Positions 12,772 through 23,866 of a DNA stretch of 64,000 nt are shown one piece after another (the stretch's first letter is position 1; every line of letters starts with the position of its first letter). The DNA comes from Octopus vulgaris. Taxonomy: Eukaryota. The stretch lies in NCBI GenBank assembly GCA_951406725.2, contig OX597830.1:27218001-27282000 (forward strand). The letters are read 5' to 3'. The notes beneath the pieces are model-generated. The model had not been told where the DNA came from and searched no databases. It saw only the letters and a program-made list of their open reading frames with translations. Both the position numbers and the translations under genes were made by a program.

Positions 12772-15700
12772 GTATCCTCTAAGGCAATGATATAAATTAT
12801 ATTCATCTTTTTTTTTATTTGATTATTTCATATTTTCTAATTTATCATTTTTAATTTCATTCAATTTTTTTTATTCAATTATTTGTTTATTATTTTTATT
12901 TAATTATTTATCATTTCCTGCATGAGGCATGAGTTGGGGTGGGTGGGGATATCTTTATTCTATTATTATTATTGTTATTTTTGTTGTGTCTTGGGAGAGT
13001 CATAGCACCAATAACACACACACGGGTTCAATTCCACTTCTTTACTATTGTTAGTCAATTAATTAAATATCTAACCAATTAGTTGATTGTTTTTTTAACT
13101 TGTTAGTTAAACATACAATTGTTATTATTATTATTATTATTATTAACCCTTGTGGTTAATAAAGCAATCATTATTATTATTATTGCTATTATTATTATTA
13201 TTATTATCATTATTATTATTATTATTATTATTATTATTATTATTATTAGAGTAGTAGTAGTAGTTGTTATTGATTCTGGTTGCTGTTTATTAAAAACCCC
13301 CGAGTCACTTATGATTTGAGCAGACCTACTATTTGAAGTAATTCCAACTGTGGCCATCCCTTCTAATCCCTTCCGATTTTTCTAACACCATGGTGTCCAA
13401 CACTACATTTTTGGCTGCTACTCCTTACCAGTTGAGTGACTCCTTAGAGGTTTGTCTTTTGGCTCTACTACTACTACTACTACTACTACTACTAGTAGTA
13501 GTAGTAGTAGTAGTAGTAGTAGTTAGTAGCAGTAGAAGTAGTTGCTGCACCACCTGTAGTTGTTTAACCCCACCCAAGGCCAATCCAGATCCAGTGTGCT
13601 TATGATCAAAGACAGTCCAGTCGTAACCATCCCTTCTGATTATTCCGACCAGTTGTATCCAGGACCACATTGTGCAATGCCTTTCCTTTTTGAGGGAGAT
13701 TCGCCTGCTATTTCTACCAGGTCAAGTGACTGTACCAAGGTTGCTTTGTTGGCTCAGTATTAGTTGGTCAACATCCAGACGTTTGACATCTTTCACTTGC
13801 AACAGTTCTTAATCTTACTATAGGTGTTTGTTCCTTCTTAAGCCATGCCTGGCTCATAAGGGCCGGTTTCCAAGTTTCATTAGCGTATAGGTTCCCTACC
13901 TGGATGGGATGCCAGTCTGTCACAGGTGAGCTGCTAGATGCAGGAGGAAAGAGTGAGAGAAAGTTGTAGCCAAAGAATCAGCAGAAGTTCGCCATTAGCG
14001 TGGAGCTTAGGTGTTTCGTTCATAAACACACACATCACCTGGTCTGAGATTTGAACCCACGATCCCTTGATCGCGAGTCCGCTGCTCTAACCACTAGGCC
14101 ATGTGCTTCCACTACTATGGATGTAGGGATTGTTTTTCTCTATTTTCTATTCTAGGTTTTTCTTGTTTTTTTTTTGTGTTTTGTTTTACAAAACTTAAAA
14201 ATACAGTTAGATAAGATTATTCAACTGATATTCCTGTCAGGAAATCAAGCATGTCTGCTACCCAAAGACATGATCTTATTTTAGTAGTAATAGTCTCTTG
14301 GTGGTAGTAGTAGTAGTAGTAGTAGTAGTAGTAGTAGTAGTAGTAGTAGTAGTAGCAGTAGTAGTGGTAGTGGTAGTAGAAGTAGTAGTAGTTTGTGGTT
14401 GGTGTTTGTTTAATCCTGGGTCATTTCAAATTTCACAGTCATATGATCTGAAGTTATTCCAATTGTGACCATCTCTTATGATCACTTCTAATCATTCAGG
14501 CACAGTAGTATCCAACACTAAATTTCCCAGTGTCTTCTAAAAATTTTTTTTCCGTTTTTTTTTTGTTCTTTCTTTCAAGATTTGAAGTTGATTTTGCTGC
14601 TATTTCTTGCCGGTCAAGTGACTGCATAATAAAGGTTCCCTTGTTGGCTCAAGCCATAGTAGTATTATTAGTAGTAGTAGTAGTTGTAGTAATCATAGTA
14701 GTAATAGTTGTGGTGATGGTGGTGGTGATAGTAGTAGTAGTAGTAGTGGCATCAGCAGCAGTAGCAGCTACAAAGCCTGTGAAAAATCTATCTGTATTTC
14801 AGGCTGCATCTCAGATTCTGACTTGCATGGAAACCTGTTTTTCTTTTTTCTTTTTTTTTTTTATCTGGGTGACTACGGAGGCCCTGTAGTTTGGGAGGAA
14901 TTTTGAAAACTTGAAATCGAAAAGGTGTTGTGTGGGGTTGTTTGTTGAAAGGTATAAACGCATGGCCGACTGAACGTACTTGCAATTATGAATTTTGTTC
15001 TTTTTGTTTGTTTTTTTTACATTGCTAGTTCTTTCCACGTTCAAAGTTTGTGTAACTATGTAACTATTGTTTTCAATATTGTTGTTGTTGTTGTTGTTTC
15101 TGATTTCGGTACAAGGCCAGTTGTTTTTCTTGGAGGAGGAAATTGATACCTTTGATTAATCGATCCCTTCTCCTGTAATTACTACTACTACTTTATTTTA
15201 TTAACCGCTGAGGGATGGAAGACAAAGTTAATCCTCATGGGATTGAGTTAGCCCTTCATCACCCCCAGGGCTGACAAAATGAAATATCATTTTTGTATTG
15301 AAGTCAATGGTATTAACTAACCCTGCCTCCCTCAAATTGCTGGCTTTGTGCCTAAATCATCATCATTATCATGATCATCATTATTATTATCATCATCATT
15401 ATTGTTATTATTATTAAGAAGGCGGTGAGCTGGCAGAATTGTTAGTGCACCAAACGAAATGCTTAGCAGTATTTTGCCTGTTGGTATGTTCTGAGTTCAA
15501 ATTCTGCCGAGGTCAACTTTGCCTTTTGCCCTTTTATTGTTGATGAATTAAGTACCAGTGAAACACTTGAGTTGATGTAATTGACTAGTCCTCTCACCCA
15601 GAATTTCAGGCCTTGTGCCATAGTAGTAAGGATTATTATTAAGGTGGTGAGCTAGCATAACAGTTAGTATACTGGCATGACAGTTAGTACACCGGACAGA

Positions 15701-15790
15701 ATGGTAGTAGCCACAAGGGCTGAACACAAAACAAAAAAGGGACAATACAACACAGAGAACAAGTGGAGCTAAGTACAAAAATTTGTATAT

Positions 15791-16220
15791 TGGCTGTGCG
15801 GTAAGAAGCTTGCTTCCCAACCACATGGTTCCGGATTCAGTCCCACTGTGTGGCACCATGGGCAAGTGCCTTCTACTATAGCCTCAAGCTGACGAAAGCC
15901 TTGTGAGTGGGTTTGGTAGACAGAAACTGAAAGAAACCCATTGTGTATATATATATATATATATATATATATATATATATATATGTGTGTGTGTGTGTGT
16001 GTGTGTGTGTGTGTGTGCACGCGTGTGTGTGTGTCTTTGTTTGTTCCCCCATCATTGTTTGACAATTAATATTGGTGTGTTTATGTCCCTGTGCCTTAGC
16101 AGTTCAGCAAAAGAGAACAATAAGTACTAGGCTTACAAAGAAAAAGTCCTGGGGTAGATTTGTTCAACGAAAGGCGGAGCTCCAATATGGTTGCAATCAA
16201 ATAACTGAAACAAGTAAAGG
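15791..16220 (+). mobile_element. SINE family A
   Basis: Head, (TA)n(TG)n and body match the family. Confidence 0.85.
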
Positions 16221-17238
16221 AATAACAGAAAGTATTAATAAAAATTCAATAATAATGATAATCATTTCACAAGGCCTGAAATTTGGGGAAGGGGACTAAT
16301 CAATTACATTGACCTCAGTATGTAACTGGTACCTATTTTATTGACCCCTGAAAGGATGAAAGACAAAGTCAACCTTGGCAGCATTTGAACTCGGAACATA
16401 AAGTGGGATGAAATGATGCTAAGCATTTTGTCTGGTGTGCTAACGATTCTGCCTTAATAATATTAATAATCATAATAATAATTCTTTCTACTAAAGGCAC
16501 AAGGCCTGATATTTTGAGGGGAGGGGATTAGTCAATTTCATCAACACCATTATTTCACTGGTACTTAATTCATTGACCCCACAAAGATGAAAGGCAAAGT
16601 TGACCTTGGTGGAATGTGAACTCAAAACATAGTAACGGGCGAAATACTGCTAAGCATTTCTCCTAGCTCGTTGTCCTAATAATAATAATAATAATAATAA
16701 TAATAATAATAATAATAATAATAATAATAATAATAATAATAATGATAATAATAATAATAATGATAATAATAATTGTTGTTTCAAATTTTGTCACATGACC
16801 AACAATTTTGAGGGGAAGGGAAAGTCAATTACATTGACCATAGTACTCAGCTTGTTCTTATTTTATTGACCCCGAAAAGATGAAAAGCAAAGCTAAATTT
16901 GAACCCTAGAACACAAAGATGGATGAGAGGCTGCTAAGAATTTTTTGTCGGGCATGTTACTGTATATGCCACCTCACTGCTTTAATAATGATAATAATAA
17001 TAATAATAATAATAGTATTGATTATAATGTAAAGCATGTCTGTTTGACCACCATACTCTTGCTCTGCATAAAATTTTTGTCCAAAGCATGGCATTTTTTG
17101 ATATTGACAAGCATACAGCATTTGCACTTTCTCTCAGCACGCTGTTTATTTTGAAACATGGCATTATTGTATAAAAGCATTGTTAATTTTTTTTTTTTCT
17201 TTTTGCAATAAGTGAATATTTCTTGTATATTTTCTTCG

Positions 17239-22510: not shown

Positions 22511-23543
22511 TCCTTTCAACTATAGGCACAAAACCTAAAAATATTGCAGGAGGGGACTAGTTGATTACATCGACCCTGGTGTTTCACTGGTACTTAATCT
22601 ATTGACACCAAAAGGATGAAAGGCAAAGTCAAACCTTGCAGAACATGAAGAAGGATGAAATGCCTCTAAGCATTTAGCTTGGCATAGAAACAATTCTGCT
22701 AATTCACTGCCTTACTAATGAAAATTGTTTCTACTAAAGGCTCAAGGCCTGAAATTTGTCAGGGAGGTGAGTAGTCAATTACATCAACCCCAATGTGGTA
22801 TTTATTGATCCGGAAAGGAGAAAAGCAAAGTCGACCTTGGTGGAATTTGAACTCAGAACATAAGGTTGTATGAAATGCCGCTAAGCATTTTACCTGGTGT
22901 GCTAATGATTTCGCTAGCTCACTGCCTTATTAATAATAATAATAAAAATTGTTTCTACTAAAGCCACAAAGCCAGAAATATTGGGGAAGCAGGTAAGTCA
23001 GTCATATTGACACCCAGTCCTTGACTGGTATGTATTTTATCAACCCTGGAAGGATGAAAAGCAAAGTCGACTTTGGCGGAATTTGAACTCGGAACATAAA
23101 GATGAACGAAATGCCACTAAGCATTTTGCCTGATGTGCTAACAATTCTGCCAGCTTGCTGCCTTAATAATAATAATAGTAATATTAGGGATTTCTTAAAT
23201 AGGCACAAGACTTGAAATTTGGTTTGAGGGTAGAGAACAGTTGATTATCTTAATTCGGGTACTTGACTGGTTGTTATTTCATTGACTCTAAAGAGAATGT
23301 AAAGTTGACTTCAAGATTTAAATGTAAAGGGTTGAACTAAACAACACTAGGTATTTTGTCTAATGCTGTAACGATTGTACCAACCTATCATTATCGTCAT
23401 TATCATCATCATAATCATCCTCATCATCATTACCATGCTCATCATCTTTAGCTTTGTTGTTATCATCGTTACCATCATAGCTTATATTCTAAATTTGAAA
23501 TTTTTTTTTCCTGGATTTAAATATTTTCTTAACGACTTCCCAG

Positions 23544-23549
23544 GCTCAG
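23544..23549 (+). CDS. CIBAR1: FAM92/CIBAR 6-nt microexon (Ala-Gln)
   Basis: ttcttaacgacttcccag|GCTCAG|gtaata. Supplies exactly the two residues (SQ in human FAM92A) missing between ...HQI and AKSD...; keeps frame. Confidence 0.8.
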
Positions 23550-23866
23550 GTAATAATTTTTGTTTTTGTTTTAGTTGAATCAGTAAACTCTTGGATCACT
23601 GTACGTAATCTATTTTTTGTTGTTGTTGTTATTGTTGATGATATTTTGGTTTCTTTTTCCTTTGGTGCGTTTGATGTAGCTCTAAATTGTCTGAAGTGCG
23701 TTACTAATGTATAATATATTCCACGCTAGTCCTTAGAAGAGGAATTGCTTTATGGTTTTCTTCTGTTTTCTGCCAAAACTTTGTGCTTCAAATATTTTTT
23801 ACTTCACCCTTGCGATAACTTACTATATCATGCTATACTAATACTGCAACTATTAGCATCATATTA

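Follow-up and report, generated by a model that had tools for sequence, protein, structure and literature searches.

U12/U2 twintrons such as those of Drosophila prospero, SRSF10, NCBP2 and CENATAC can be removed at the same position by either spliceosome through closely spaced competing sites, which gives two isoforms (PMC8329584; PMC3564746). Both junctions of the octopus FAM92 gene described here fall within the twintron definition of PMC3564746, which allows shifted layouts. The 18 human twintrons listed in that study do not include FAM92A. Compared with the twintrons named above, the two octopus introns are shifted and interlocked: the putative major intron starts 12 nt within the minor intron, takes in the microexon as well and extends to exon C. 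It uses a GC donor, and the consensus of the minor donor is translated. Both forms give full-length products, with two residues at the site in one and four in the other. In MAPK8/9 (JNK) and TMEM87a/b, interlocked U12/U2 exons likewise make two coding choices exclusive through splice-site incompatibility (PMC8329584). The alternatives there are duplicated exons on the 72-nt scale, whereas in octopus a 6-nt exon alternates with a 12-nt exon extension.

Neural microexons of the SRRM4/eMIC programme are tiny, in-frame and conserved, and they lie on interaction surfaces. The FAM92 microexon resembles them in all of these respects, but it has a minor-type acceptor and looks constitutive outside cephalopods, with no clean skip among 36 Logan proteins. 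A different FAM92A1 micro-exon of 24 nt has been reported (PMC4317164), and Fam92a was not found by name in the MicroExonator supplements.

The minor intron of FAM92A and FAM92B is already catalogued in human and mouse, with the FAM92A donor reading ATT/GTATCCTTT. In mammals, the FAM92A intron is mis-spliced upon loss of U11, SCNM1 or U4atac. Human and mouse FAM92A (CIBAR1) and FAM92B share with octopus the position after an Ile codon and the GTATCC donor, and the protein reads SQ there in both mammals, as a preliminary description of the octopus sequence had stated for the human homologue. The mammalian FAM92A donor matches the full consensus and the intron is 2.5-3 kb long, whereas the octopus donor deviates at +8 and its intron is several times longer (Table 1). 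Published skipping values for mouse Fam92a range from 46-100% and may partly represent mapping failures on the 6-nt exon.

The FAM92 locus of octopus

The window analyzed was a 64,000-nt stretch of Octopus vulgaris DNA (contig OX597830.1). It carries a FAM92/CIBAR1 gene whose product matches mouse and human crystal chains (E value, 1e-48), and a PF06730 domain together with a predicted three-helix BAR fold places the product in the FAM92/CIBAR BAR-domain family. Exon A encodes the end of BAR helix 2, the tip loop and the start of helix 3.

Table 1. Coordinates of the exons, introns and splicing signals of FAM92 in the window.
Feature	Position	Strand	Remark
FAM92 coding exon, residues ~50-91	3392..3516	+	
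FAM92 coding exon, residues 92-114	5408..5476	+	in 4/4 runs, the 5′ loose end of exon A is the terminus of this exon
Exon A, 102 nt coding, residues 115-148	12670..12771	+	ends HQI
U12-type donor GTATCCTCT	12772..12780	+	directly 3′ of exon A; used in run contigs X5, X6
Dual-use 12 nt	12772..12783	+	intronic in AQ form, exonic (V-S-S-K) in bypass; run contigs X3, X8 align to 12785
U12-type GT-AG intron, 10,772 nt	12772..23543	+	microsatellite- and repeat-filled
GC donor AAG/GCAATGAT	12784..12791	+	putative major class
Bypass GC-AG intron, 23,249 nt	12784-36032	+	skips microexon
U12-type branch motif TTTCTTAAC	23525..23533	+	A at 23532, 11 nt from intron end (23543)
Microexon GCTCAG (Ala-Gln), 6 nt	23544..23549	+	run contigs X5, X6; RefSeq X3; Ser-Gln in vertebrates
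U2-type intron, 12,483 nt	23550..36032	+	donor CAG/GTAATA, GT at 23550
Alternative downstream donor of RefSeq X1 (57-nt exon)	23601..23608	+	
Exon C (AKSDY..., helix 3)	36033..36137	+	acceptor common to AQ and VSSK routes
Coding exon after exon C, end of BAR domain	38181..38294	+	
Coding exon following BAR domain	39392..39535	+	
Final coding exon, acidic tail and stop	40513..40686	+	

The minor donor agrees with the consensus at eight of nine positions; the mismatch is at +8, where octopus has C and all eight other loci with the same donor have T. The branch motif differs from TTCCTTRAC at one position, with its A at -11, and branch sites of minor introns lie approximately 10-20 nt from the 3′ end. 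RTATCCT occurs three times on the forward strand of the window, and only the occurrence at 12772 ends a coding exon. The arrangement of branch motif, AG, 6 nt and GT was found once in 12772-36032, and at least one such arrangement was present in 8 of 200 dinucleotide shuffles. With a donor in use, a branch site, an orthologous position of minor class and minor snRNA genes in the octopus genome (U11, U12 and U6atac, above the Rfam cut-off), the intron starting at 12772 appears to belong to the minor class.

Two spliced forms

Splicing was assessed with contigs assembled from four runs and aligned with exon A, which report presence only, without read counts or tissue labels; the runs were taken as RNA by guess, and the spliced junctions support this. 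In two of the four runs (contigs X5 and X6, from two studies and two organism codes), the contigs leave exon A at 12772 and pass through the remainder of the microexon into exon C, so that GCTCAG stands between its neighbours in mRNA, as in a microexon of the 3-27 nt class. HQI-AQ-AKS is also the sequence that RefSeq gives for isoform X3 in O. sinensis (P0122). The succession of a 10.8-kb U12 intron, a 6-nt microexon and a U2 donor proposed in the preliminary description is thus borne out by sequence and RNA contigs, including the GCTCAG junction for which it suggested an RNA search. Its expectation that gene predictors would likely miss the microexon is not supported: RefSeq X3 annotates this form.

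In two of the four runs (contigs X3 and X8, with depths of 55.6 and 21.3), the contigs instead continue past exon A for 12 nt of the minor intron and are joined from there to exon C. Five junction registers are possible for this VSSK form, and the only canonical one is GC-AG. The GC-AG ends, a fit to the U1 consensus at 7 of 11 positions and pyrimidines at 15 of 17 positions before exon C point to a major-class intron. The AQ and VSSK contigs come from four studies, two each, and the split follows the organism code (A gives VSSK; B and C give AQ); it may reflect species rather than tissue. HQI-VSSK had been regarded earlier as a read-through by gene predictors, yet it is a spliced mRNA in octopus and is present in five Logan proteins of cuttlefish. 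An artefact of prediction is discarded, since both RNA contigs and RNA-derived cuttlefish proteins carry VSSK.

The AQ, VSSK and 57-nt isoforms are all present in RefSeq. The 57-nt form of RefSeq X1 was absent from the four RNA runs, but contigs lose rare forms and this absence is uninformative. No clean skip (HQI-AKS) was found in the four runs or in 36 site-spanning Logan proteins. The locus is probably a twintron-like U12/U2 switch, in which the minor donor consensus becomes coding and takes the place of the microexon where BAR helix 3 begins.

Structure prediction gave a three-helix BAR fold for both products, with helix 3 from residue 145. The pLDDT at residues 141-150 was 74 for VSSK versus 97 for AQ, and the low VSSK value may only reflect alignment gaps. 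In the human protein, helix 3 starts at residue 142, and R134, R141 and E148 form the tip-to-tip interface of the crystal.

Distribution among cephalopods and other lineages

RNA-derived cuttlefish proteins occur in SE and VSSK forms, and the members of the pairs P0124/P0125 and P0127/P0126 differ only at this site. In the cuttlefish cluster of 29 Logan contigs, SE forms were carried by 20 and VSSK forms by 9. The twintron is therefore conserved across species at the protein level, with both forms in octopus and cuttlefish, the latter known from proteins alone. Eight of 234 proteins had the four-residue insert, and all eight were cephalopod. Among the Logan-only proteins, 36 of 37 span the site (31 with two residues, five with VSSK, all five in the cuttlefish cluster). 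VSSK was found in no other lineage sampled, and a 50%-cluster search added 145 proteins, 95 with an exon A match and none with a four-residue insert. The argument for shared ancestry of VSSK is limited to the second S, the K and the +13 position, because V and the first S are forced by any minor donor.

Two residues were lacking in 38 of the 234 database proteins, mostly genome-based models, which may have missed the microexon; four bivalve proteins of this kind have a shorter exon A instead. Among metagenome loci covering the end of exon A, 8 of 10 have GTATCCTT. A teleost-like contig (L093) shows the same layout of minor intron, microexon and major donor, insect-like contigs keep only the minor intron, and the intron has been lost entirely in a bivalve-like contig (L024). 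The eight annelid-like metagenome loci examined had no exon A match and are uninformative. The earlier suggestion that the architecture extends from molluscs to vertebrates agrees with the octopus RNA, the human and mouse catalogue and the teleost-like contig.

Bypass-like models elsewhere are scattered (elephant, with 13 additional residues; amphioxus; sheep and cattle, with a frameshift), which fits generic leakiness; mammalian ones are longer or out of frame, and none resembling VSSK was found. Several states are seen side by side in the FAM92 family: the full layout, loss of the downstream intron, loss of both, an added bypass and possibly duplicated microexons.

Proposed competition between two spliceosomes

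We consider it reasonably likely that two spliceosomes compete at the FAM92 minor intron and thereby set the BAR tip of FAM92, which bends membranes, to AQ or VSSK. With U11/U12 on 12772-12780 and on the branch point, U1 would be kept off the GC donor (12781-12791), and definition of the microexon would be aided. If this binding fails, the whole 23 kb would be taken out by the major spliceosome as a single GC-AG intron. The minor donor is likely weakened by a T-to-C change at +8 in cephalopods, which would also turn an exonised Phe/Leu into Ser. In the VSSK product, helix 3 of the BAR domain is predicted to be longer by two residues at the distal tip, where it would adjoin lipid-binding and tip-to-tip packing residues. 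A wider version of this model is doubtful: coleoids may have made an ancient, constitutive minor-intron microexon into a sensor of minor-spliceosome activity. The weakened U11 site would also be coding sequence, its reading as exon or intron would set BAR-tip length in each tissue, and this length would govern the assembly of the FAM92 lattice and membrane curvature at cilia, mitochondria or synapses.

It is possible, if rather unlikely, that VSSK is instead a tolerated leak, in which an in-frame cryptic GC site comes into use owing to the weakened minor donor. The VSSK protein would then function as AQ does, no regulation would act on the ratio, and the gene would be at an intermediate stage towards loss of the minor intron. 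Cryptic major donors are common near minor donors (PMC6717393; PMC6800510), and twintrons have been proposed as conversion intermediates (PMC3564746). The lack of a G at +5 of the GC donor, the similar folds predicted for the two products and the intronless bivalve-like contig also accord with a leak. However, the identical length and the VSSK sequence are shared by octopus and cuttlefish despite approximately 66% protein identity, VSSK was assembled in half of the octopus runs and 9 of 29 cuttlefish contigs, and the microexon and branch site are fully kept.

A drift of the 12772 intron to the major spliceosome, so that it only looks minor, leaving an ordinary alternative 5′ splice site with exon skipping, is very unlikely, although the mismatch at +8, the weak pairing with U11 and the pyrimidine-rich acceptor (13 of 17 positions, as rich as major acceptors) would agree with it. 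For the octopus donor with octopus U11, the duplex energy is -4.4 kcal/mol, compared with -6.3 to -6.9 at five other loci, but the GC-donor region reaches -3.9, so duplex energies discriminate poorly. Against such a drift, the 12772 donor fits the U1 consensus at only 3 of 11 positions, the branch motif lies at a minor-type distance and pairs with octopus U12 over 9 bp, and human and mouse have a minor intron at the orthologous position, which is more retained in U4atac-mutant cells. Duplex energy alone did not single out the branch site: the exon C acceptor pairs with U12 equally well or better (-9.8 versus -8.1 for the true branch site; -6.5 versus -3.9 in a second comparison).

An origin of the two mRNAs from different gene copies, or of VSSK as an assembly or annotation artefact, is highly improbable: exon A does occur three times in the assembly, and the microexon and exon C twice each, but the additional exon A copies stop after approximately 450 nt of intron, the second exon C breaks off after approximately 70 nt with no exon A within 20 kb upstream, the donor region is identical in all exon A copies, and Logan contigs are assembled genome-free, with both forms recurring in cuttlefish.

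Implications

The minor intron itself was already known in human and mouse and the isoforms were already in RefSeq; no description of the cephalopod U12/U2 switch was found in the literature searched. Standard cross-exon definition has no space on a 6-nt exon flanked by a minor acceptor and a major donor, and the FAM92 microexon is a natural test case for the handover between two spliceosomes. The coexisting layout states bear on how minor introns are lost or kept. In humans, FAM92A is a ciliopathy gene and is affected in minor-spliceosome disease. The cephalopod bypass provides a second productive route, probably major-only, that is read out as a difference of two residues, so that the ratio at a single junction could indicate how active the minor spliceosome is in different cephalopod tissues.

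Gene identity and splice signals of octopus FAM92

The octopus gene was identified as FAM92 (CIBAR1). Exon C matched Pfam FAM92, an upstream exon was 100% identical to Octopus sinensis FAM92A, and an O. vulgaris protein belongs to the same cluster. The encoded protein matched mouse and human CIBAR1 crystal chains (E ~1e-48). Octopus AQ aligned to SQ in these chains, in agreement with the SQ that the preliminary description had placed in the human protein. Of the three O. sinensis isoforms annotated in RefSeq, X1 contains a 57-nt exon, X2 reads HQI-VSSK-AKS, and X3 reads HQI-AQ-AKS.

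The minor donor, branch motif, GCTCAG exon, and GT donor were all found in the window sequence as first described. RTATCCT occurs three times on the + strand of the window and only once at an exon end. Shuffling the 23-kb region 200 times produced the branch-AG-6 nt-GT arrangement in 8 cases. The microexon donor is strong (9/11 U1 fit), and a GC donor inside the minor intron is weak (7/11). A perfect GTATCCTTTT also lies mid-intron at 9908-9917, away from any known exon end and probably by chance. In the downstream intron, a 165-bp unit is tandemly repeated seven times (32303-33470, 87% matched).

Splice features of the octopus FAM92 locus (window coordinates)
Feature	Position	Strand
Exon A, 102-nt coding, ends HQI	12670-12771	+
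Minor donor GTATCCTCT, directly 3' of exon A	12772-12780	+
Branch motif, A 11 nt from AG	23525-23533	+
Microexon GCTCAG	23544-23549	+
GT donor of downstream intron	23550	+
Exon C start	36033	+

Two transcripts from one gene

Contigs from four of the 24 listed runs, representing four studies, were aligned to exon A; the runs were taken as RNA by guess, and their contigs show the presence of a form, not its level. All four runs contained a contig spliced from the previous exon into exon A. Contigs of runs X5 and X6 exit at 12772 and continue through the rest of the microexon into exon C, providing the expected GCTCAG-containing junction in two of the four runs. Contigs of runs X3 and X8 are colinear with the genome to 12785 and then enter exon C, which places the junction at AAG/GC (12784). 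The resulting GC-AG intron of 23,249 nt takes out the remaining minor intron and the microexon. HQI-VSSK had been regarded as read-through by gene predictors; because the X3 and X8 contigs splice from AAG/GC to exon C, VSSK is a real transcript. The two products are exclusive and share the exon C acceptor, and the two-route architecture is well supported. The form found in each run tracks organism code, with VSSK in code A (X3 and X8) and AQ in codes B and C (X5 and X6), and may thus reflect a difference between species.

The octopus assembly contains three copies of exon A, two of the microexon region, and two of exon C. The extra copies are fragmentary: those of exon A reach only ~450 nt into the intron, and the second exon C is incomplete and lacks an exon A within 20 kb upstream. 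One complete gene accounts for both mRNAs. Partial FAM92 duplicates lie on contig C17 of this assembly (G000) at 27.09, 27.18-27.20, and 65.28-65.30 Mb; they consist of an inverted 5'-exon copy at 95-97% identity, an isolated exon A, and a microexon with truncated exon C (flanks 88-89% identical). They may represent segmental duplication or assembly redundancy.

Conservation of the minor intron and microexon

Supplementary data of PMC6717393 give ATT/GTATCCTTT as the FAM92A minor donor in both human and mouse, and FAM92B is likewise among the minor-intron genes. Excerpts of other reports describe higher retention of the FAM92A minor intron in U4atac-mutant cells (PMC6800510) and mis-splicing upon loss of U11 or SCNM1 (bioRxiv limb study; PMC12750831). 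Among 77 metagenome loci, whose taxon labels were read from their peptides, the end of exon A was covered in 10; eight of these carry GTATCCTT there and two are intronless. Teleost-like L093 has the donor, a TTCCTTGAC branch site, a TCTCAG exon, and a GT donor in exactly the octopus layout. Together with the human and mouse donor, this full match bears out the proposed conservation from molluscs to vertebrates. In insect-like loci, ant-like ones among them (L025, L050, and L027), the minor intron is retained but exon C has absorbed the two codons. Spacing at the site in 234 proteins was two residues in 165, two short in 38, and two long in 8. In mammals, fish, and amphioxus, VSF/VSL read-through models and post-SQ extensions mark both exon borders.

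The octopus genome contains U11, U12, and U6atac genes. U6atac gave 43 matches from 46 candidates scored in G000 (many contigs, including loci L099 and L100), mostly full length and dispersed, and U11 and U12 gave 5 and 3; the U6atac abundance is likely a retroposed expansion. In bivalve-like FAM92 at L024:1717-1992, three introns are gone (the minor one, the downstream one, and the one preceding exon A), and the tip loop is shorter. In supplement 6 of PMC6717393, the mouse Fam92a exon after the minor intron shows apparent skipping of 46-100%, which may reflect aligner failure on a 6-nt exon; no SQ-less vertebrate protein occurred among the Logan proteins in this set. Amphioxus models (P0052, P0154, and P0235-P0239) have an SQ exon 20 residues longer, alike in three Branchiostoma species and possibly a conserved alternative donor. 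At animal locus L031:858-1050 (JAAUYG010136167.1), the minor donor is followed by a tandem pair of candidate 6-nt exons, AK (884) and TE (1038), each with a U12-like branch motif, AG, and a strong GTRAG donor; among 2000 shuffles, two candidates appeared in none and one in eight. They may be duplicated microexons, mutually exclusive through spliceosome incompatibility.

Conservation of the bypass

A cuttlefish cluster of 10 proteins, named after a single Sepia pharaonis member, contained FQI-SE-AKS in four and FQI-VSSK-AKS in six, five of the latter Logan-derived. Two protein pairs were identical except at the SE/VSSK site, and contig support was 20 for SE forms and 9 for Logan VSSK forms. All eight four-residue inserts among the 234 proteins were cephalopod. 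The site was spanned in 36 of 37 Logan-only proteins (two-residue, 31; VSSK, 5), and none of these 36 showed a clean skip of the microexon.

Position +8 of the minor donor is C in octopus and T in all eight other loci and the four mammalian donors; the second Ser of cuttlefish VSSK implies C at +8 there too. Pairing with octopus U11 was estimated at -4.4 kcal/mol for the octopus donor versus -6.3 to -6.9 for five others, energies to be read with caution, as by this method the exon C acceptor equaled or outscored the true branch site as a U12 partner. Bypass models, longer or out of frame, are also present in elephant, amphioxus, and sheep/cattle, indicating that the leak is general. What distinguishes the cephalopod bypass is its small size, its intact reading frame, an abundance sufficient for assembly, and its occurrence in both octopus and cuttlefish.

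Predicted effects on the protein

AlphaFold models of both isoforms kept the BAR fold, with helix 3 from residue 145. Mean pLDDT over residues 141-150 was 97 for AQ and 74 for VSSK, a gap that is partly an alignment effect. According to PMC11266426 and PMC12269497, helix 3 of human FAM92A1 begins at 142, lipid binding involves R132/R134/R136, and the crystal tip-to-tip interface includes R134, R141, and E148. Two extra residues at this place would change the register between the tip loop and the start of the helix, making packing the likeliest target.

Relation to previous reports and proposed mechanism

The minor intron has been described before, and databases already annotate both the microexon form and the VSSK form. 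U12/U2 twintrons are an established class (PMC3564746, PMC8329584, and PMC6800510); Table 1 of the first and section 7 of the second do not include FAM92A. The passages checked in PMC4667643, PMC8034651, and PMC10639083 describe neither the 6-nt exon nor a cephalopod switch, and no account of either was found in the open-access full-text literature searched. The two-route microexon feature is real, and its 6-nt exon and cephalopod switch are apparently undescribed in that literature.

U1 bound at the GC donor would cover 12781-12791, immediately beside the minor donor, so binding of U11 and U1 is likely exclusive. Engagement of U11/U12 would hide the GC donor and define the microexon, whose strong donor would pair with exon C. 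Without this engagement, the weak GC donor would pair with exon C and the minor intron would never be used. Joining of the microexon to exon C would commit the transcript to minor splicing, a state made permanent in insects through loss of the downstream intron; such commitment favors a major-first splicing order. We lean toward regulated, functional competition between spliceosomes as the mechanism. A fuller reading, which we regard as rather doubtful, is that coleoids turned the microexon into a tissue-by-tissue sensor of minor-spliceosome activity that would set the length of the BAR-domain tip.
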